The notes: a model not told the origin generated them from the letters alone. Shown: positions 1-12,956, counted from the stretch's first letter. The stretch is DNA of 64,000 bases from Escherichia phage ime09 (NC_019503.1), one strand, 5' to 3'. Program-made: numbers and translations.

Positions 1-146
1 GATGGCTTAACTGCTTGATATCCCATTCTAAACTCCCTAATTAATCGTTTCTTTGTATCTTCAGAACAACCACTCCAATCAACTCTATCGACTGAAATGC
101 CATCGTCCCCATCGTCTAAATCATACCAGCGAGTTTTTAAAATCAT
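1..146 (-). CDS. hypothetical protein, partial (C-terminal part lies outside the window)
   Basis: Minus-strand frame opens at ATG 144-146 (MILKTRWYDLDDGDDG...) and runs off the window start with no stop; ATGA overlap with stop of the gene above. Confidence 0.35.
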   Translation of the reverse strand, partial: MILKTRWYDLDDGDDGISVDRVDWSGCSEDTKKRLIREFRMGYQAVKP

Positions 147-517
147 TTGATTTTCCTACAATCATTCACGAATTCTTTCATTGATTCATTTTCAATATAA
201 GACATGTAGTTATTATATTCTTTTAATTGTATTTTGTAATCCTTTTTTCTTTGCCAATTTATTTTAAAATTATCATAATGAAAATATAAAATGATACTAA
301 AGAATGAAAATAATGAAATTGCTATAGTATAATGAAGTTCACTCCAAACTTCTATTATATCTACTATACCGCTGACGTTACTGCGGATGTTTAAAATAAT
401 ACAGTCAATCGTTAATCCAATAAGACTACCAGCAAGAGCTGCAGCCAACGCCACAGCAAAAATTAAAAATGACTCAGAAAAAGAATATTTAACTTTATTT
501 AGTTTTGGCTTTTGCAT
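143..517 (-). CDS. small membrane protein (two predicted TM helices), paralog of next gene
   Basis: 124 aa ORF; two hydrophobic stretches then a basic C-terminal tail resembling that of the 499-912 product. Confidence 0.55.
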   Translation of the reverse strand: MQKPKLNKVKYSFSESFLIFAVALAAALAGSLIGLTIDCIILNIRSNVSGIVDIIEVWSELHYTIAISLFSFFSIILYFHYDNFKINWQRKKDYKIQLKEYNNYMSYIENESMKEFVNDCRKIK

Positions 518-912
518 CGTGATTCCTTAACAAATTTCATAATTTCATTAAATTCATACATATTTAGTTTAAGCTGGTGTTCCTTTTTAATCTTTTTACA
601 CTGAGCTTTCCATTCACGTACACGTTTACGATAATGCCTTCCTTGATACCAATATCCTACCCAATTTACAGGTACCAATAAAAATGGAACTACTAATGGA
701 AGAATTAATACTAACAAAAATATTACGCCAGATTCAATATCAGTCATAAAGTCTATAACCATTCCAACAATCAATAGAATTACAAATGATATAGCTGTCA
801 CAGGACCTATTAATACATCAGTAGGAATTAGCTGACGCTTTAGTTCATACTTCACAGGTTTACTTGGAAGGTATAGTGATGGCTTTGACATATTCTCTAC
901 ATTCCTTAACAA
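499..912 (-). CDS. small membrane protein (two predicted TM helices), paralog of previous gene; start may be Met8 at 891
   Basis: 137 aa ORF; hydrophobic core plus basic C-terminus (..MKFVKESRCK) similar to ..MKEFVNDCRK of neighbour; AGGA-like RBS before Met8. Confidence 0.55.
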   Translation of the reverse strand: MLRNVENMSKPSLYLPSKPVKYELKRQLIPTDVLIGPVTAISFVILLIVGMVIDFMTDIESGVIFLLVLILPLVVPFLLVPVNWVGYWYQGRHYRKRVREWKAQCKKIKKEHQLKLNMYEFNEIMKFVKESRCKSQN

Positions 913-1465
913 ATTTTTCTAATAATAAATCGCTTTCAAAATTAGGATTTTCTACGAATTTATCAAAAAGATCATCAACAATAGTCAAGATATTCTTTTT
1001 ACTAAGAATACGTTTATTTTCATGTTTTGTTTCAGAATCAACTATAAGAGTAAAGAAATATTTCTTTCCCTGAAATTTTACCGTAGTATCAATATAAAAT
1101 AAATTTGACTTTTGTAAATTACGTTTAAACCATGCGTCACTTAAACTATAAACGCCAAGATAATCATAATCGTCATTTAAATAACAAACTGTCCATTCAG
1201 GAGAAATGAAATCTGTAAATTCAACATCAAAATCACATGTCAATGAATGAATTGATTCAATACTTTTAATGAGTATTCCAGGACGTATTAAAGACTTTTT
1301 ACCTTTATAAAATCCAGAAAGACTTTCATCAGTTTCATATGAAGAGCTCCAATAGTAATTACGTCCTTCTGCCATGTGTTTAAGAGCATTTAGTAATTGG
1401 TCTGGAACATCAACTTGTCTTTGGAACTCTTCAAACATTGAATTGAAATCACTTTGCATTTTCAT
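860..1465 (-). CDS. hypothetical protein
   Basis: 201 aa ORF, same strand and tight spacing with neighbours; AGGA upstream of ATG. Confidence 0.5.
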   Translation of the reverse strand: MKMQSDFNSMFEEFQRQVDVPDQLLNALKHMAEGRNYYWSSSYETDESLSGFYKGKKSLIRPGILIKSIESIHSLTCDFDVEFTDFISPEWTVCYLNDDYDYLGVYSLSDAWFKRNLQKSNLFYIDTTVKFQGKKYFFTLIVDSETKHENKRILSKKNILTIVDDLFDKFVENPNFESDLLLEKFVKECREYVKAITIPSK

Positions 1466-1506
1466 TCCTATTTACTCCAAGTAATAGGGGCCGAAGCCCC
1501 TTATCA

Positions 1507-2100
1507 TTATTTCAGAGAATTAATATATTCCTGAACATCGGCAGAGGTAGTTTCAACCCCAGAAATATTACCATTAAAGGTTTCAACTCGAGCAAGGGTA
1601 TCTTCAATATCAACCTTAGTCAGTGCTGCAATTTCAACTACATCATCTGCAGTACTAATTCCAAGGGCATTTGCCGCACGAGTTTCACGGATATATTCCA
1701 ATTTAACTGCAAGTTCTTGACGAGCATCATCTAACTCAACTACTTTCTTGGCGATTTCAATTCGCATTTCAGCATAACCGTCAGCTTTAGTAGTCAATTG
1801 CTCAGCTGTTCGACGATATAGTAAACCGAGTTTAGCATGCATTGTTACATCTTGACCTTCGGAAAGAAGTTTACGAATTTCGCGTTCTTTTGATTCGGCC
1901 TGTCGATTCTTTTCGATAACAAGTTCACGAATACGTTTTTCTTCATTAATAGATTTAATAGAAGCAGTTTTTAGATCTTTAATTTTATCAAGTAGTTTTG
2001 CTGCTGCAACGGTATACTGTTCTTCGACAGATAGATTTTTAGCCATAGCAGAACCAAGTTTAGTGCGAATAAACTCAACAATTTTCTTCAGTGTGTTCAT
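1507..2100 (-). CDS. coiled-coil protein, faint PspA/IM30-like pattern (unverified)
   Basis: 197 aa ORF, highly charged heptad-like alpha-helical sequence; RBS AGGAAAT before ATG; family assignment is by eye only. Confidence 0.5.
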
Positions 2101-2174
2101 AATATTTCCTTAGGTTGATTAAGATTTAAAATCCGTGTAGAATTATATCCTGTTATTTGAGAAATGTAAACGTG

Positions 2175-2573
2175 TTATTTCATTTTTGCGAGACAGATTT
2201 CATTGGCTTCCCATTGAGCTTGCTTAATAATAGCTTTGGATACAGGAACCTTTTGACCATAAGTTTTTGACGTTGAGAGAACAATATATTTGTTTGCCTC
2301 ATTATGCCAGCCCCATGATTCTTCGCCATGAGTACCTTTAACTACAGCTGACACCTCAACAGAGCAGCCATCAGAACTAATCTTGGTGTTTACAATCCAT
2401 TCATTTCTCTCGATAGCTTCATTTTCAGACCTCATTTTTTCTTCATACACGGCGGCCCAATCAGTTTTTGTCAAGCTTAAACTAAGAGCTTTCTCTAATT
2501 CTTTGGCAGCTTTTTGTTGTTCGGGTGTTAATGAATTATATAACTCTCGCATTTCTTTATCTTCAATATTCAT
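2175..2573 (-). CDS. hypothetical protein
   Basis: 132 aa ORF; GAGGAGAA upstream of ATG. Confidence 0.5.
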   Translation of the reverse strand: MNIEDKEMRELYNSLTPEQQKAAKELEKALSLSLTKTDWAAVYEEKMRSENEAIERNEWIVNTKISSDGCSVEVSAVVKGTHGEESWGWHNEANKYIVLSTSKTYGQKVPVSKAIIKQAQWEANEICLAKMK

Positions 2574-2628
2574 TATGTTCTCCTCAAGTTACAGGCTCAT
2601 AATATCTCAATCATGAGCCTGTGTAAAC

Positions 2629-2895
2629 TTATTTCATATTATTGAAATATTCTTCTGCGATTTCGTCGTTATCATGGTAAACTTTAGAAGACAGTTTAAC
2701 ATAACCTTCTGCTGTAAACATGTTAATCACAACCTTTACAGTATACCACTGACCATCTTCATTACCCATTACTGCGTAAGTTTCAAACATCGGATGATCA
2801 GGACCGATAACTTTAATATCATTCACTGTACGACCGAAATCTTCTGAAACGCATTTCATAAAGAAGTTGAACAGTTCGCCGTAATTATCCATTTC
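2629..2895 (-). CDS. hypothetical protein (start moved to MDNYGELF.. because the longer ORF overlaps its own promoter)
   Basis: ORF 2629-2958; internal ATG at about 2895 is preceded by GGAGAATGAA RBS and lies downstream of an early-promoter-like GTTTAC..TACTAT element. Confidence 0.45.
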   Translation of the reverse strand, partial: EMDNYGELFNFFMKCVSEDFGRTVNDIKVIGPDHPMFETYAVMGNEDGQWYTVKVVINMFTAEGYVKLSSKVYHDNDEIAEEYFNNMK

Positions 2896-2938
2896 ATTCT
2901 CCAAGTGTTGTTTTTCTGTATCAGTAGTTGATAGTTGT

Positions 2939-2968
2939 ATAGTACCATGGAAGAACATGGATGTAAAC
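2939..2968 (-). promoter_or_regulatory. early (sigma70-type) promoter-like element, -35 GTTTAC / -10 TACTAT
   Basis: Minus-strand GTTTAC (2963-2968) and TACTAT (2939-2944), 18-nt spacer. Confidence 0.45.
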
Positions 2969-3124
2969 AGTTTTGTGAAAAAAGTTTTAGTGAATTCTAG
3001 GGCAGGGAGGGGCAGTTAAAGGATAGGATAATATATTATAAAGGGTAGAAACTAAATGATGCCTAGAGAGGTCCAGAAAGGCCTAGATGCCAAAAAGCCC
3101 TATCATTTAGATAGGGATTTAAAA

Positions 3125-3688
3125 TTATTTATCTAGTTTAGTTATTATAGCTTCTGCGGCAGCTTTTAGCTTAGATGCGGTGTTAATACGATTTTTAATT
3201 TCAGTATAAGCGTCGCCAAGAACATCAAGGCTATCAGAATAAACACTTACACTATTGCGTTCGCTATTTGAAATAGAACCTTTAGTTTTACGATCAAAAT
3301 CGGTGTACACGTCTTGAAGATCACGGGCTGCCTTCTTTGCATCATCCAATGCATCAAGAGCTTTATTCAAAGCATTAACGTATTTTTTAGTGTCGAACAT
3401 ATTCTTAGAAATTTTAACAGGTGCGCGTTCAGGAGTAGCTAACACAGATTTAGGAACCTGAGCGCCAGATGCCAATTTCTTAGAAATTTTGAAAAATGCT
3501 TTGTTGAATTTATTTTCTTGACTCATTGTAAAAGAACTATTATCGATGTTGTACATTTCAATAGCTTTAGCTTTCCACTTAAGAAAATCGCCGCGGTCTT
3601 TTGGGTCCAAGTGGAAAAATACTTTAGTAAGATCTGCTTCAGATGGTAATTTTGCTGCTTCGGTTAAAAATTCGGCATAGGTTTTCAT
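3125..3688 (-). CDS. internal head protein-like (IP family, capsid targeting sequence-like N-terminus)
   Basis: 187 aa; N-terminus MKTYAEFLTEA matches the MKxYxEFxxEA motif of T4 internal proteins; preceded by terminator hairpin of gene above. Confidence 0.6.
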   Translation of the reverse strand: MKTYAEFLTEAAKLPSEADLTKVFFHLDPKDRGDFLKWKAKAIEMYNIDNSSFTMSQENKFNKAFFKISKKLASGAQVPKSVLATPERAPVKISKNMFDTKKYVNALNKALDALDDAKKAARDLQDVYTDFDRKTKGSISNSERNSVSVYSDSLDVLGDAYTEIKNRINTASKLKAAAEAIITKLDK

Positions 3689-3778
3689 TTAAAATCCTTG
3701 AAATAATTTATCGGTTGGTTATTAATTATTTATTACTTTGTTATTATCCGTAACAGCATTCTATATGTGATTCAAACT

Positions 3779-3806
3779 AAAAAGCCCCAACCTTTTGGTC
3801 GGGGCT
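3779..3806 (-). terminator. intrinsic terminator-like hairpin plus U-tract (after IP-like gene 3814-4287)
   Basis: Minus strand AGCCCCGACC-AAAA-GGTTGGGGCT followed by UUUUU. Confidence 0.6.
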
Positions 3807-3813
3807 AAGAATG

Positions 3814-4287
3814 TTATTTGATTTGTTTAGCAGACCAAATGCGGTCTTTAATAATTTTTTGGATGTCTTCAACATACTCAAGAGAGTGAACATGTGGGTT
3901 ATCTTTGAAACTATAAGCACGGGCTAACTTTTGGCCTTCGGTTTTGATTACTAAAAGCTCTTTAAGGATAGCTTCATATTTAGCGATAATTCCTTTAACG
4001 ATATTTTTTTCTTGTGCAGCTTTAGGATCTGCTTTAGGAGCAGGTTTACCCGAAGCCTTTGCAAAAGCAGCGCCAGTAGCAACTAAACTTTTCCAGGCCA
4101 TACTAACTGCATTTCCCGTAAATCCTTCTGCTTTCATGTCGCGAGCAAATTGGAATCGTGATTCGTCAGAAGCATCTTTATAGGAATATTTACCCGCTGC
4201 AATGGCTGCTTTTGCGACAGCTTGAATTTCGGTGCTAGATGCTTCATTTAACACCGCTTCATTTAAAAATTGAGCATATGATTTCAT
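3814..4287 (-). CDS. internal head protein-like (IP family)
   Basis: 157 aa; N-terminus MKSYAQFLNEA has the same capsid-targeting-like motif; Ala/Lys-rich. Confidence 0.6.
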   Translation of the reverse strand: MKSYAQFLNEAVLNEASSTEIQAVAKAAIAAGKYSYKDASDESRFQFARDMKAEGFTGNAVSMAWKSLVATGAAFAKASGKPAPKADPKAAQEKNIVKGIIAKYEAILKELLVIKTEGQKLARAYSFKDNPHVHSLEYVEDIQKIIKDRIWSAKQIK

Positions 4288-4337
4288 CTTATTTCCTGTT
4301 TTAATTCGTGGATTTAATATACTACTATATTTATACT

Positions 4338-4365
4338 AAAAAGCCCCAACCTTTCGGTCGGGGCT
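4338..4365 (-). terminator. intrinsic terminator-like hairpin plus U-tract (end of tRNA / stable RNA transcript)
   Basis: Near-identical copy of the 3779-3806 hairpin (one loop substitution), followed by UUUUU. Confidence 0.6.
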
Positions 4366-4379
4366 AAGCCTTGCGGCAA

Positions 4380-4676
4380 CCTTGTCGGGGTTCCACCTGC
4401 TAAGGCAAGTGTTTGTACGAAACGCCGGGATTCGAACCCGGTTATTAAGCAGTTGACGCTACTCAATATTTTTAAAAGGCCATATCTCGACCATATCCGA
4501 ACGTTCCGTCAAAAACGCTACTCGGCTTACGGCAAAGATATTTCCTCGAATCGATAATTCTGTGCGCCGTTTCTGCTGTGATGTAAGGGGACATTAACAG
4601 ATCGTAAAGATTTGTTAATGCCAGTCCTTACCCAGGGAACATCAGTCCGACGACTTACCGGTAGCGACCCGGTTTC
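4380..4676 (-). ncRNA. structured stable-RNA region with a tRNA-like T-arm, possibly the counterpart of T4 species 1/2 (RNA C/D)
   Basis: No credible ORF; contains CCGGGTTCGAATCCCGG T-arm-like element on minus strand and several hairpins; ends at a hairpin plus U-tract terminator (4338-4365). Confidence 0.35.
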
Positions 4677-5027
4677 TTAATATTCTTTTAAAGCATCAAT
4701 CTGTTCACGGCGTTTACGCCATAAATCAATTACTTCATACGCAGATTCAGCATTTCGAATTGGACGGCATTTATATAAAGACTTGTGATTTTGATATTGC
4801 GTAGATAACGGAATTTTATCTAAAAGGTCTTTACGTTCAAAGTATTCGTAACCATCTAAGCCAAATGAACGATTTTTGAGAAATTGCCAATGACCATATT
4901 CGTTTTCGACATAAACATAATCCGCGTGTTGATAAAGCAAATTAATTACACGTTCAGAAATAACAGTGTCATTGTGATTAAAATAGAATGTCAAATCATG
5001 GACTACTAAATAAACATTACCTTTCAT
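4677..5027 (-). CDS. hypothetical protein between tRNA-Arg and the stable-RNA region
   Basis: 116 aa ORF immediately 3' of tRNA-Arg on the same strand. Confidence 0.45.
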   Translation of the reverse strand: MKGNVYLVVHDLTFYFNHNDTVISERVINLLYQHADYVYVENEYGHWQFLKNRSFGLDGYEYFERKDLLDKIPLSTQYQNHKSLYKCRPIRNAESAYEVIDLWRKRREQIDALKEY

Positions 5028-5043
5028 ATTTTCCTCACTTAAT

Positions 5044-5119
5044 TGGTCGAGGCAGTAGGGATCGAACCTACGACCTAGGACTTAGAAGGTCCTTGCTCTT
5101 CCTTCTGAGCTATGCCTCG
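5044..5119 (-). tRNA. tRNA-Arg (anticodon TCT), CCA encoded
   Basis: Cloverleaf folded by hand: acceptor CGAGGCA/TGCCTCG, anticodon stem AGGAC/GTCCT, loop CTTCTAA, T-loop TTCGATC. Confidence 0.8.
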
Positions 5120-5123
5120 TATT

Positions 5124-5198
5124 TGGCGGACGTGATAGGATTCGAACCTATAACCAATCGCTTAACAGGCGATCGCTCTGCCATTGAGCTACACATCC
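5124..5198 (-). tRNA. tRNA-Asn (anticodon GTT)
   Basis: Acceptor GGATGTG/CACGTCC with one G-U pair, anticodon loop CTGTTAA, T-arm ATAGG TTCGAAT CCTAT, CCA encoded. Confidence 0.7.
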
Positions 5199-5202
5199 AA
5201 AT

Positions 5203-5289
5203 TGGTGGGGAGTGATGGAGTCGAACCACCCGAGTCGCAATGACAATGGATTTACAGTCCACACCGCTACCTCTACGGGATAACTCCCC
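5203..5289 (-). tRNA. tRNA-Tyr (anticodon GTA), class II with long variable arm
   Basis: Acceptor GGGGAGT/ACTCCCC, anticodon loop CTGTAAA, long variable arm, T-loop TTCGACT; resembles bacterial tRNA-Tyr. Confidence 0.7.
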
Positions 5290-5302
5290 TTAATTCTTAA
5301 TT

Positions 5303-5377
5303 TGGTGGCCCTGGGTGGAATTGAACCACCATCTGGCGATTATGAGTCGCTTGCTTGAACCTTCCAGCTACAGGGCC
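5303..5377 (-). tRNA. tRNA with anticodon CAT (Met, or Ile if lysidine-modified as assumed for T4 tRNA-Ile)
   Basis: Acceptor GGCCCTG/CAGGGCC, anticodon loop CTCATAA, T-arm GGTGG TTCAATT CCACC, CCA encoded. Confidence 0.65.
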
Positions 5378-5378
5378 T

Positions 5379-5454
5379 TGGTGCTGATTGACGGAATCGA
5401 ACCGCCGACCTTCTCATTACAAGTGAGTTGCTCTACCTACTGAGCTAAATCAGC
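5379..5454 (-). tRNA. tRNA-Thr (anticodon TGT)
   Basis: Acceptor GCTGATT/AATCAGC, D-stem GCTC/GAGC, anticodon loop CTTGTAA, T-arm GGCGG TTCGATT CCGTC. Confidence 0.8.
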
Positions 5455-5459
5455 AAAAC

Positions 5460-5549
5460 TGGCGGAGGCGATAGGATTTGAACCTATGAGTCGCCGGAGC
5501 GACTGCCGGTTTTCAAGACCGGTGCATTAAACCACTCTGCCACGCCTCC
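5460..5549 (-). tRNA. tRNA-Ser (anticodon TGA), class II
   Basis: Acceptor GGAGGCG/CGCCTCC, anticodon loop CTTGAAA, long variable arm, T-arm ATAGG TTCAAAT CCTAT. Confidence 0.8.
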
Positions 5550-5551
5550 AG

Positions 5552-5625
5552 TCTCCATACAAGGATTTGAACCTTGGACCTCCTGATCCCAAATCAGGCG
5601 CTCTACCAAACTGAGCTACACGGAG
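5552..5625 (-). tRNA. tRNA-Pro (anticodon TGG), CCA not encoded
   Basis: Acceptor CTCCGTG/TATGGAG, D-stem GCTC/GAGC, anticodon loop TTTGGGA, T-arm CAAGG TTCAAAT CCTTG. Confidence 0.75.
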
Positions 5626-5635
5626 TAAATTAAAT

Positions 5636-5709
<74 letters not shown>

Positions 5710-5714
5710 AAATT

Positions 5715-5801
5715 TGGTGCGAGAAGTGGGACTCGAACCCACAAGGAAATCATTCCGCAGCATTTTAAGTGCTGTGCCTTTACCAATTTGGCCATTCTCG
5801 C
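5715..5801 (-). tRNA. tRNA-Leu (anticodon TAA), class II
   Basis: Acceptor GCGAGAA/TTCTCGC, anticodon loop CTTAAAA, long variable arm, T-arm GTGGG TTCGAGT CCCAC; one nt from tRNA-Gln. Confidence 0.8.
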
Positions 5802-5802
5802 G

Positions 5803-5875
5803 CTGGGAATAAAGGACTCGAACCTTTGCATCCTGGAATCAAAATCCAGTGCCTTACCAACTTGGCTAATTCCCA
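5803..5875 (-). tRNA. tRNA-Gln (anticodon TTG), CCA not encoded
   Basis: Acceptor TGGGAAT/ATTCCCA, anticodon loop TTTTGAT, T-arm AAAGG TTCGAGT CCTTT; first gene of the array. Confidence 0.8.
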
Positions 5876-5972
5876 ATTATTAACAAAGGCTCTTAAGCAA
5901 GAACCCTTGATGATAGAGGGTATTAATCAGTGCGATATGAGTTAATAATAACAAATAATTCTTAAAGCATAT

Positions 5973-6266
5973 TTACCATTTATGATAATACATATTTACG
6001 ATGCATTCAAGACCCAAAGGATTCTTGAAAATATCATATTCAAGAGGACCTTTTTCTGTTTCAATAAAGAAATCAAAATTTACTGTATTAAATTTACGGT
6101 CTTCCTTCACTAATTTAACTTGTGAAGATGAACGGTCAATGTAAACCTTTTCAACTTCAAAATATGTTAAAATGCCATAATCATCAATCAAGGCTTTAGC
6201 CGCGTCTTGATCATATTTATATCCATTTTCAATGGATGATACTTTCGCATAAAGAATCATTATCAA
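5973..6266 (-). CDS. hypothetical protein
   Basis: 97 aa ORF between tRNA array and IP-like gene; start overlaps stop of gene above. Confidence 0.45.
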   Translation of the reverse strand: MIMILYAKVSSIENGYKYDQDAAKALIDDYGILTYFEVEKVYIDRSSSQVKLVKEDRKFNTVNFDFFIETEKGPLEYDIFKNPLGLECIVNMYYHKW

Positions 6267-6646
6267 CCTTCATCAACAATAGTGTGCGTATTGGCATTTA
6301 CAATTTGCCACCAATCAAAGCGATTAGAACCATAATCTGGTTTGTTTTCATTTTCTTTGATAATGTCACGGAGTTCATCTTCGGTAGCGGCTTTCGCTAT
6401 TAAATCAGCATATCCACCACGAGGATAATAATTATCACCTGCAAAAAGTAAAAAGTTTGGTTTAATGTTATTGAACTCTTCAAGAGTAATAACTTTTCCT
6501 GATGGTAGTTGAACAATCTCTACATATTTATATCCTAATTTTTGAGCAGCATCTACTGCTTCAAGCAAAGTATCATGAGCCCATCCAATTTGACAACCTG
6601 GCTTTTCCGATGGATTAGCCTGATAATCCGCATACACTTTGTACAT
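6263..6646 (-). CDS. hypothetical protein (start moved to MYKVYADYQ..)
   Basis: ORF 6263-6685; internal ATG at 6644-6646 has AAGGTG RBS 8 nt upstream and abuts the stop of the 6648-6833 ORF. Confidence 0.45.
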   Translation of the reverse strand: MYKVYADYQANPSEKPGCQIGWAHDTLLEAVDAAQKLGYKYVEIVQLPSGKVITLEEFNNIKPNFLLFAGDNYYPRGGYADLIAKAATEDELRDIIKENENKPDYGSNRFDWWQIVNANTHTIVDEG

Positions 6647-11245: not shown

Positions 11246-12956
11246 TAACCTTAATTGGTTTGTTGGTGTTGTTGAAGATAGAATGGACCCATTAAAATTA
11301 GGTCGTGTTCGTGTTCGTGTAGTTGGTCTGCATCCACCTCAAAGAGCACAAGGCGACGTAATGGGTATTCCAACTGATAAATTACCATGGATGTCAGTTA
11401 TTCAACCTATAACTTCTGCAGCAATGTCTGGAATTGGAGGCTCCGTTACTGGTCCGGTAGAAGGAACTAGAGTTTATGGTCATTTTTTAGACAAATGGAA
11501 AACTAACGGAATTGTCCTTGGCACGTATGGTGGAATAGTTCGCGAAAAGCCTAATAGACTTGAAGGATTTTCTGACCCGACTGGACAGTATCCTAGACGT
11601 CTAGGAAATGATACTAACGTATTAAACCAAGGCGGAGAAGTAGGATATGATTCGTCTTCTAATATTATCCAAGATAGTAATCTAGACACTGCGATAAATC
11701 CTGATGATAGACCGCTATCAGAAATTCCAACTGATGATAATCCAAATATGTCAATGGCTGAAATGCTTCGCCGTGATGAAGGATTAAGACTAAAAGTTTA
11801 TTGGGATACTGAAGGATATCCGACAATTGGCATTGGTCATCTTATCATGAAGCAGCCAGTTCGTGATATGACTCAAATTAATAAAGTTTTATCAAAACAA
11901 GTTGGTCGTGAAATTACCGGAAATCCAGGTTCTATTACAATGGAAGAAGCGGTAACTTTATTTGAACGTGATTTAGCTGATATGCAACGTGACATTAAAT
12001 CACATTCTAAAGTTGGCCCAGTTTGGCAAGCAGTTAATCGTTCTCGTCAAATGGCATTAGAAAATATGGCATTTCAGATGGGTGTTGGCGGTGTAGCTAA
12101 ATTTAACACAATGTTAACTGCTATGTTAGCCGGAGATTGGGAAAAAGCATATAAAGCTGGTCGTGATTCATTGTGGTATCAACAAACAAAAGGCCGTGCA
12201 TCTCGTGTTACCATGATTATTCTTACAGGGAATTTGGAATCATACGGTATTGAAGTGAAAACACCGGCTAGGTCTTTGTCTGCAATGGCTGCTACTGTAG
12301 CAAAGTCTTCTGATCCAGCTGACCCTCCTATTCCGAATGATTCGAGAATTTTATTTAAAGAACCTGTTTCTTCATATAAAGGCGAATATCCGTATGTTCA
12401 TACAATGGAAACTGAAAGCGGTCATATTCAGGAATTTGACGATACCCCGGGACAAGAACGATACAGATTAGTTCATCCGACTGGAACATATGAGGAAGTA
12501 TCACCGTCAGGAAGAAGAACAAGAAAAACTGTTGATAATTTGTATGATATAACAAATGCTGATGGTAATTTTTTGGTAGCTGGCGATAAAAAGACTAACG
12601 TCGGTGGATCAGAAATTTATTACAACATGGATAATCGTCTCCACCAAATAGATGGAAGCAATACAATATTTGTACGTGGCGATGAAACTAAGACGGTTGA
12701 AGGTAATGGAACTATCCTAGTCAAAGGTAATGTTACTATTGTAGTTGAAGGTAATGCTGACATTACAGTTAAAGGGGATGCTACCACTTTAGTTGAAGGA
12801 AATCAGACTAATACAGTAAATGGAAATCTTTCTTGGAAAGTTGCTGGGACGGTTGATTGGGACGTTGGTGGTGATTGGACAGAAAAAATGGCATCTATGA
12901 GTTCTATTTCATCTGGTCAATACACAATTGATGGATCGAGGATTGACATTGGCTAA
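11229..12956 (+). CDS. 5: gp5 baseplate hub / tail-associated lysozyme with C-terminal beta-helix
   Basis: 575 aa; central lysozyme fold then VxGxxxxx repeats (..VEGNGTILVKGNVTIVVEGNADITVKGDATTLVEGN..). Confidence 0.95.
   Translation: MEMISNNLNWFVGVVEDRMDPLKLGRVRVRVVGLHPPQRAQGDVMGIPTDKLPWMSVIQPITSAAMSGIGGSVTGPVEGTRVYGHFLDKWKTNGIVLGTYGGIVREKPNRLEGFSDPTGQYPRRLGNDTNVLNQGGEVGYDSSSNIIQDSNLDTAINPDDRPLSEIPTDDNPNMSMAEMLRRDEGLRLKVYWDTEGYPTIGIGHLIMKQPVRDMTQINKVLSKQVGREITGNPGSITMEEAVTLFERDLADMQRDIKSHSKVGPVWQAVNRSRQMALENMAFQMGVGGVAKFNTMLTAMLAGDWEKAYKAGRDSLWYQQTKGRASRVTMIILTGNLESYGIEVKTPARSLSAMAATVAKSSDPADPPIPNDSRILFKEPVSSYKGEYPYVHTMETESGHIQEFDDTPGQERYRLVHPTGTYEEVSPSGRRTRKTVDNLYDITNADGNFLVAGDKKTNVGGSEIYYNMDNRLHQIDGSNTIFVRGDETKTVEGNGTILVKGNVTIVVEGNADITVKGDATTLVEGNQTNTVNGNLSWKVAGTVDWDVGGDWTEKMASMSSISSGQYTIDGSRIDIG

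Follow-up and report, generated by a model that had tools for sequence, protein, structure and literature searches.

The e.2–e.8 early cluster of T-even phages: a predicted PspA/Vipp1-type protein, e.6, and neighbours with a common C-terminal tail motif

The DNA considered here is a 64,000-nt stretch of Escherichia phage ime09 (NC_019503.1), the whole of which is called the window; the part under study, positions 1–2968, contains the gene e.6, the product of which is predicted to be a phage relative of the membrane-binding proteins PspA and Vipp1, together with the genes adjoining it. All sizeable open reading frames (ORFs) of this part, which amount to seven genes, lie on the minus strand, just as an earlier note on this DNA, made from the sequence alone, had described them. 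The same note held that they match nothing in the neighbourhood of the T4 lysozyme gene e, which proved incorrect: comparison of the window ORFs with the T4 proteins (NC_000866) by BLASTP, from which the gene names used here derive, identified orthologues of e.2, e.3, e.4, e.5, e.6 and e.8 at 86–99% protein identity, in the same order, on the same strand and with the same overlaps as in T4. The source of the window is a Tequatrovirus; positions 1–6500 matched 1069 phage records (megablast), headed by Shigella phage ESh26 with 96% identity over 99% of the query. Judged by similarity and gene order, positions 1–2968 are the Tequatrovirus e.2–e.8 early accessory cluster in its T4 arrangement. While this homology to T4 is clear, it does not lead to characterised housekeeping genes, as the T4 copies (e.2, P32273; e.3, P32274; e.4, P39222; e.5, P39223; e.6, P39224; e.8, P39226; supplement of PMC9697503) are known but themselves uncharacterised.

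Synteny with T4 extends to the surroundings, with nudE and e on one side of the cluster and the tRNA cluster on the other; the exception is the slot of e.7. That no e, nudE or denV is present, as the earlier note stated, is true of the window, but only because the window begins just to the right of them: in the close relatives BW-1 and JLBYU22, e.2, nudE, e and denV are found to the left of the matching region, adjoining what is here the window's left edge. The sole sequence of the window resembling T4 lysozyme e (11748–12245, plus strand, 43% identity) is, by its position and strand, taken to belong to the baseplate hub protein gp5, as its lysozyme domain, and not to be an endolysin.

Following the direction of transcription, the cluster begins with e.8 (2629–2892, minus strand like all features of this part; 87 aa, 99% identity to T4), the reading frame of which is open to 2958 (109 aa); the T4 match begins at residue 23, placing the T4-equivalent start at 2892, and phrog_2678 likewise covers residues 23–109. 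The e.7 slot is occupied by a gene for a 132-aa accessory protein (2175–2573; phrog_8232), which has no counterpart among the T4 proteins and no similarity to T4 e.7 (BLASTP) but stands in for it; BW-1 has no gene in this slot and JLBYU22 an ORF of 58 aa. Phage records with the 132-aa protein number 255, those with e.6 1105. Next come e.6 (1507–2100, 197 aa, 97.5%) and e.5 (860–1465), which encodes a soluble protein of 201 aa (94%). The e.4 gene (499–891, 86%; phrog_2604) is followed by e.3 (143–517, 124 aa, 88%; phrog_2330), and both products are predicted to have two transmembrane (TM) helices. Although the ORF of e.4 can be read from a TTG codon as 137 aa (499–912), the T4 match begins at residue 8 and the T4-equivalent ATG lies seven codons further in, at 891, giving a protein of 130 aa; the extension to 912 is probably not used. 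Of e.2 only the 5′ end, that is, the first 48 codons (2–146), is contained in the window, with 94% identity to T4 e.2 residues 1–48; the gene runs on past the left edge.

Early-type promoter-like sites stand before e.8 (2939–2967, TTTACA-17-TACTAT with TG), before the 132-aa gene (2599–2627, TTTACA-17-TATTAT, 10/12) and before e.6 (2142–2170, GTTTACA-17-TATAAT, 11/12). The hairpin GGGGCTTCGGCCCC (1486–1501), which lies between e.6 and e.5, is not followed by a T-run on the coding strand; for phage UFV13, this hairpin appears at e.6 in a list of predicted terminators (PMC5931544). Rfam returned no match in 1–2968. Downstream of the hairpin the genes overlap, e.5 and e.4 by 32 nt, e.4 and e.3 by 19 nt, and e.3 and e.2 by 4 nt; the hairpin followed by four overlapping genes therefore suggests one unit, within which e.5, e.4, e.3 and e.2 are probably translationally coupled. 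In T4, the RNAs of e.2–e.8 are all classed as early and the proteins have all been seen by mass spectrometry (PMC9697503, supplementary files 4 and 6); by protein timing, e.4, e.5, e.7 and e.8 are early, e.2 and e.6 middle, and e.3 accumulates late (PMC9697503).

In the 197-aa product of e.6 the earlier note had discerned a faint PspA/IM30-like pattern. A search with this single sequence against the PDB sequences gave no match. When 1.84 billion representatives were searched exhaustively with HMMER, no more than 36 clusters emerged, nearly all of proteins of about 200 aa. When a profile built from 28 of them was compared with the PDB sequences, the eight best matches were all Vipp1 or PspA proteins (E = 7.8e-5 to 2.1e-3), and the in-register alignment spans residues 1 to about 140 of query and target alike. 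Of the 28 relatives, four match the PspA/Vipp1 family PF04012 by themselves, the best with E = 8.9e-10. The AlphaFold2 (AF2) model of e.6, with a predicted local distance difference test score (pLDDT) of 83.5, consists of a helix (residues 2–22), which aligns to Vipp1 residues 1–22, a long hairpin of two helices (25–80 and 86–145, pLDDT 81–98) corresponding to the α1–α2/3 hairpin, and then three short helices. Foldseek, run with this model in the PDB, returned ten top matches that were all Vipp1 or PspA, at 13–18% identity in the alignments, with the archaeal ESCRT-III proteins CdvB and CdvB2 coming next. The pattern is thus borne out by the family profile, by PF04012 in relatives, by the AF2 fold and by Foldseek, and e.6 is, on profile and model evidence, a divergent viral member of the PspA/Vipp1/ESCRT-III superfamily. 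Its match to the cellular proteins (IM30; PF04012; PDB 7O3W, 6ZVR, 8QBW) extends in register from residue 1 over the predicted N-terminal helix and the long α1–α2/3 hairpin; it differs from them in being encoded by virulent phages, without PspF, PspB or PspC, and in its family-specific C-terminal part.

The PspA likeness of e.6 is already published and not new. For gp163 of Klebsiella phage Metamorpho, a homologue of e.6, homology to PspA was noted by HHpred (PMC7862958), and phrog_1203, the PHROG that e.6 matches, was described as PspA-like in Kuttervirus SeF3a (Gp_125), where an anti-abortive-infection role was hypothesised (PMC9409062); gp163, Gp_125 and e.6 belong to the same protein family. 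The Metamorpho report was the only one that surfaced in a literature search on the T4 gene names e.3–e.6, and in the main text of a large comparative study of Psp systems the words 'virus', 'bacteriophage' and 'Caudovir' are absent (PMC11237479). Viral contigs were searched with three distant single homologues of e.6, which found no loci. The passages on e.6 and PspA in the two phage reports (PMC7862958, PMC9409062) mention neither the neighbouring genes nor a tail motif nor membrane partners; as far as these passages go, no report was found of the motif described below or of its tight linkage to e.6 over two phage families, Straboviridae and Ackermannviridae.

The proteins encoded downstream of e.6 end alike. 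Those of e.5 (LEKFVKECRE), e.3 (MKEFVNDCRK) and the long form of e.2 found in relatives (NNFITECRK) end in Φ-[IV]-x-x-[C/A]-[R/K], and e.4 ends in a variant (MKFVKESRC); the motif itself is encoded at 896–913 in e.5 (FVKECR), at 155–172 in e.3 (FVNDCR) and at 517–534 in e.4 (FVKESR, followed by C). The window, 64 kb in all, has 189 ORFs of 50 aa or more, and of these only e.3, e.4 and e.5 have F[VIL]xx[CS]R in their last 25 residues. In other genera the gene after the e.6 homologue encodes a soluble e.5-like protein of 180–316 aa, and an alignment of such proteins from five genera has as its sole invariant columns E183, F185 and C189, all of which lie in the tail motif; further motif-bearing proteins, soluble or with two TM helices, follow the e.5-like gene. 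Across genera six different codons are used for the arginine of the motif, which lies 1–25 residues from the stop codon. With coding and spacing this variable, the motif is conserved at the protein level; an origin as a DNA repeat or as a by-product of the Shine-Dalgarno sequence of the next gene downstream was rejected on the same grounds. A redox or catalytic role of the cysteine is unlikely, as alanine takes its place in Ackermannviridae and in Serratia phages.

Enrichment of the strict form F[IV]xxC[RK] beside e.6 was assessed in eight phages outside Tequatrovirus, taking ORFs on the same strand up to about 3.5 kb downstream from the e.6 homologue; ORFs upstream, on the opposite strand or elsewhere in the window served as controls. 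This form occurs in the last 32 residues of 12 of the 64 downstream ORFs and of none of the 224 controls (Fisher p = 6e-9). When Ackermannviridae were included, the loose form [FIVL][IV]xx[CA][RK] occurred in 19 of 93 downstream ORFs versus 3 of 323 controls (p = 8e-11). A motif-bearing gene lies downstream of the e.6 homologue in 10 of the 11 other lineages examined, Ackermannviridae included, where alanine replaces the cysteine. In Agtrevirus pSal-SNUABM-02, for example, the gene after the e.6 homologue encodes a protein of 183 aa with an N-terminal anchor (IETIVARARGQ); then come three single-TM proteins of 55–61 aa, which end in IVENARGRRR, IVNKARGRRK and IVSQARSRRQ.

The earlier note had described the two small proteins, here e.3 and e.4, as basic at both ends with two hydrophobic helices in between, and TM topology and charge agree with this: at the N-terminus each is basic (net +4), a short acidic loop lies between its two hydrophobic helices, and its tail is basic again (net +3 in e.3 and, strongly so, net +10 in e.4). 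By hydropathy and charge both are predicted N-in/C-in hairpins with periplasmic loops of only 7–17 residues and 45–50 cytoplasmic C-terminal residues. The long e.2 of BW-1 and JLBYU22 (162 aa) has a soluble N-terminal domain followed by a pair of TM helices and a basic tail, the last residues of which are NNFITECRKLK. All three proteins, e.3, e.4 and long-form e.2, are thus predicted to be small inner-membrane hairpins with basic tails that are cytoplasmic by the positive-inside rule; in the T4 record, e.2, e.3 and e.4 are already given as 'predicted membrane protein' (supplement of PMC9697503). Since the positive-inside rule puts the tail in the cytoplasm, the motif would lie in the same compartment as e.6.

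As to their kinship, e.3 and e.4 have two terminal motifs in common, M-x-K-P-x-L at the N-terminus and F-V-x-x-[C/S]-R close to the C-terminus. In shuffles that keep the composition of N-terminus, TM segments and tail, the likeness of e.3 and e.4 reached p~0.03, and that of the long e.2 and e.3 was clearer (p~0.006). A hidden Markov model (HMM) made from eight e.3/e.2-type proteins of four genera, without any e.4 sequence, was searched against 529 six-frame ORFs; directly below the training family ranked the e.4 proteins of T4, the window and ESh27 and the e.4-like protein of Marfa (E = 1.2e-3 to 7.2e-3), interspersed with a single soluble e.5-like protein; the e.4 alignments ran end to end in three cases and were partial for ESh27, and the first unrelated ORF followed at E = 0.032. 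It is plausible from such comparisons that e.2, e.3 and e.4 are old, fast-diverging paralogues. The number of two-TM genes differs between phages: Marfa has one of e.4 type, AnYang one of e.3 type, ESh27 both e.4 and e.3, and AS6 two of e.3/e.2 type. An exact 16-nt DNA repeat (522–537 = 901–916), which covers the motif of e.4 and lies at the e.4/e.3 and e.5/e.4 junctions, is extended by an adjoining 18 nt at 78% identity; by a longest-repeat statistic in shuffles, 16 nt has p~0.01. As proof of a recent tandem duplication this repeat was rejected, the local DNA alignment alone not being significant (p~0.07).

Two observations on relatives concern the e.2 and e.4 genes. While e.2 is intact in the closest relatives, with 162 aa, the annotated e.2 of T4 has only 102 aa and one TM helix, and in the 'intergenic' DNA that separates it from nudE an ORF of 51 aa matches (E = 5e-12) the C-terminal part of the 162-aa e.2 of BW-1 and JLBYU22, comprising the second TM helix, the basic stretch and NNFITECRKLK; the annotated T4 e.2 looks like a truncated gene, of which this ORF would be the remnant (both in NC_000866, stretch L003; 5473–5628 and 5653–5961, minus strand). 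Protein P0143 of Escherichia phage vB_EcoM-UFV05 (106 aa) begins with about 32 residues of e.4 and continues as the C-terminal two-TM half of a long e.2, ending NFITECRKLK; this chimera indicates deletion or recombination between paralogous membrane genes. Its precomputed Pfam identifiers are PF26873, also carried by e.4 relatives, and PF26896, for the e.2-type half; e.5 relatives carry PF26876. None of these three was returned by the Pfam-A scans made here.

To the right of the cluster, between e.8 and rnaC, two adjacent genes for proteins like the internal head proteins (Ip) are found (3125–3688 and 3814–4287, minus strand), with starts of the capsid-targeting type, MKTYAEFLTEA and MKSYAQFLNEA; both match phrog_2280, and their similarity hardly extends past these 11 residues (BLASTP E = 0.003, over this stretch alone). 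In T4, by contrast, ipII and ipIII lie between denV and e, and no close homologue of T4 IpI, IpII or IpIII was found in the window. Two nearly identical terminator-like hairpins, AGCCCCGACC(A/G)AAAGGTTGGGGCT then TTTT (3783–3806 and 4342–4365, minus strand), stand one after and the other upstream of the second Ip-like gene; a further terminator-like hairpin lies at 3098–3116. Homologues of the T4 small stable RNAs rnaC (4416–4554, 98.6%) and rnaD (4562–4677, 88%) lie on the minus strand; Rfam, which contains no family for these RNAs, gave no match there at the gathering threshold. Beyond them, a 116-aa ORF (4677–5027; phrog_3355) abuts tRNA-Arg, one of ten tRNA genes (5044–5875, minus strand; Arg, Asn, Tyr, Met, Thr, Ser, Pro, Gly, Leu, Gln), versus eight in T4; the homing endonuclease segB and tRNA-Ile are missing from this cluster. 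Downstream of the e cluster, several T4-like genera have three to five tandem small genes (65–107 aa) with ends of the type W-[VLY]-S-S-S-x-x-C, such as GAWVSSSEMC and GGWVSSSMEC (stretches L005, 5067–6639; L008, 5445–6239; L009, 5022–6264; L010, 4799–5325; L011, 5431–6245; L014, 6986–7818); this multi-copy family is absent from the window.

Scans of all ORFs with Pfam, NCBIfam and PADLOC gave nothing above threshold. Public records call e.3 and e.4 'sulfurtransferase', e.6 'host specificity protein' and e.5 either 'phosphoserine phosphatase' or 'site-specific RNA endonuclease'; none of this finds support in these three collections, and the unsupported names for e.3–e.6 ('sulfurtransferase', 'host specificity protein', 'phosphoserine phosphatase') should be dropped.

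As summarised in PMC9409062 and PMC11237479, PspA and Vipp1 proteins bind stressed inner membranes and limit the leakage of protons. In LiaI–LiaH of Bacillus subtilis and PspB/PspC–PspA of enterobacteria a gene of the PspA family likewise adjoins genes that encode small proteins of the inner membrane, the C-terminal helices of which lie in the cytoplasm. There, LiaI serves as the anchor of LiaH, and PspC binds PspA through its cytoplasmic part. By analogy with these systems, the reading favoured here, with moderate confidence, is that the cluster is an early-expressed module for the maintenance of the inner membrane, in which e.6 would act together with the motif-bearing proteins; both this function and a binding between the tails and e.6 are inferred. 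Early in infection e.6 would assemble on the cytoplasmic face of the inner membrane and limit proton leakage, keeping up the proton-motive force needed for phage development and for the correct timing of the holin. The motif-bearing proteins would be its partners: the membrane hairpins e.2, e.3 and e.4 might anchor or recruit e.6, as LiaI does LiaH and PspB/PspC do PspA, while the soluble e.5 might be a cytoplasmic partner or regulator that uses the same docking helix. In contrast to LiaI and PspB/PspC, these putative partners carry a distinct tail, Φ-[IV]-x-x-[C/A]-[R/K], which is also present on the soluble e.5. The benefit to the phage could lie in the proton-motive force after injection or superinfection, in the avoidance of premature holin triggering, or in resistance to host defences that depolarise the membrane.

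A more far-reaching version, which is speculative and on the doubtful side, would have T-even phages and some Ackermannviridae possess a self-contained viral membrane repair of the PspA/ESCRT-III type, with the tail motif as the docking signal for a polymer of e.6. The e.2, e.3 and e.4 proteins, the mini single-TM proteins of Agtrevirus and the soluble e.5 would then recruit or regulate this polymer, with partner switching as between PspF and PspBC–PspA but built from unrelated parts, and the membrane potential would be preserved against injection damage, premature holin triggering or depolarising host defences.

Several observations weigh against a module of this kind or against the assignments on which it builds. 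The e.6 protein of the window has no match to PF04012 at E≤1 (Pfam), and its membership in the family is transitive, because the family profile and relatives match where the protein alone does not; its last ~55 residues, with an invariant Gly147, lie outside the PspA/Vipp1 match and are specific to the family, and its N-terminal helix is moderately amphipathic, with a hydrophobic moment of 0.45 that was exceeded by 336 of 5000 shuffles (p~0.07). The link between tails and e.6 is circumstantial, consisting of gene adjacency and the common motif, and the enrichment tests are only partly independent because the motif was defined after the window had been seen. Morganella phage Mm5 is the only lineage without a motif gene beside e.6, and Aeromonas phage 31 and Cronuts have a soluble motif protein only and no two-TM partner. 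No match of e.2, e.3 or e.4 to PspB, PspC or LiaI-LiaF-TM was obtained at E≤1 (Pfam, NCBIfam), and the AF2 model of e.5, made from a shallow alignment (pLDDT 60), gave no fold assignment. Nor is the pairwise similarity of e.3 and e.4 significant, either by BLASTP (E = 0.26, 18% identity) or by comparison of the family alignments with hhalign (P = 0.02, probability 2.3%), the input families being narrow (e.3 at least 68% identity, e.4 at least 55%); the suggestion in the earlier note that the two are diverged tandem duplicates is left with weak support from the family HMM and with the common terminal motifs.

Instead of serving general maintenance, e.6 might, with or without its neighbours, counter abortive-infection effectors of the host that depolarise the inner membrane (Rex-like, TM-effector). 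Such a role has been proposed in print for phrog_1203 in Kuttervirus SeF3a (PMC9409062), and early expression, the sporadic occurrence of the gene in Ackermannviridae and the hypervariable adjoining slot are in line with it; however, its presence in about 1100 phage records and many genera of Straboviridae is a breadth more typical of a general infection function, and no similarity to PADLOC or anti-defence families was found, so that this role, while worth keeping in mind, is considered unlikely. It is also rather unlikely that there is no module at all, that is, that unrelated accessory ORFs acquired their like termini by common descent and by cassette shuffling at the junctions, with e.6 acting alone. 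The 16-nt junction repeat and the overlapping frames could drive duplication and gene conversion, the copy number of two-TM genes varies from one to three among genera, and the chimeric P0143 testifies to recombination at this place. Against shuffling stands the motif itself, which is kept with different codons and at different stop distances across genera, is the only invariant part of the e.5-like proteins, and stays beside e.6 in another phage family with unrelated flanking genes; codon variation, invariance in e.5 and adjacency across families together therefore argue for selection on both peptide and linkage.

The earlier note had named superinfection exclusion or lysis timing as a frequent role of small phage membrane proteins of this sort, and e.3 and e.4 resemble known T4 membrane effectors in size and topology, are expressed early and are near the endolysin gene e in relatives. 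This idea found no support: searches of Pfam, PHROG, NCBIfam and PADLOC gave no match to a family with a known function, and in the first three this includes the families of superinfection immunity and holins; comparison of e.3 and e.4 with the T4-type Imm, Sp and holin/antiholin families (Pfam, PHROG) returned only families of unknown function. The periplasmic loops are short, and the most conserved feature is a cytoplasmic tail motif that is common to the soluble e.5 and linked to e.6; its presence in a soluble protein and its linkage to e.6 therefore argue for a cytoplasmic partner rather than a target in the periplasm or in DNA entry, and a stand-alone function of e.3 and e.4 independent of e.6 is decidedly improbable. 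Least credible, and indeed very improbable, is that e.6 mimics the PspA of the host in order to manipulate the Psp response, by sequestering PspF or poisoning PspA oligomers, and does not protect the membrane. Membership in the superfamily and early expression would fit, but e.6 is very distant from cellular PspA, as seen in the failed single-sequence search of the PDB and the low Foldseek identity, which makes a precise mimicry of PspF-binding surfaces unlikely; further, members of the family occur in phages that infect Aeromonas and other hosts.

If the favoured reading of e.6 and its motif-bearing neighbours as a membrane-maintenance module is true, it would mean that viruses of bacteria use membrane-maintenance machinery of the ESCRT-III type together with conserved partners of their own. 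T4 is the best-studied virulent phage, yet e.2–e.8 are without an assigned function, and e.6 is kept in about 1100 sequenced phages. As F-[IV]-x-x-C-R offers a concrete, mutable handle, the idea is directly testable in T4, and it would bear on how infected cells preserve their membrane potential after injection of the DNA, on how lysis is timed as opposed to the premature triggering of holin, and on how phages may resist defences that depolarise the membrane.

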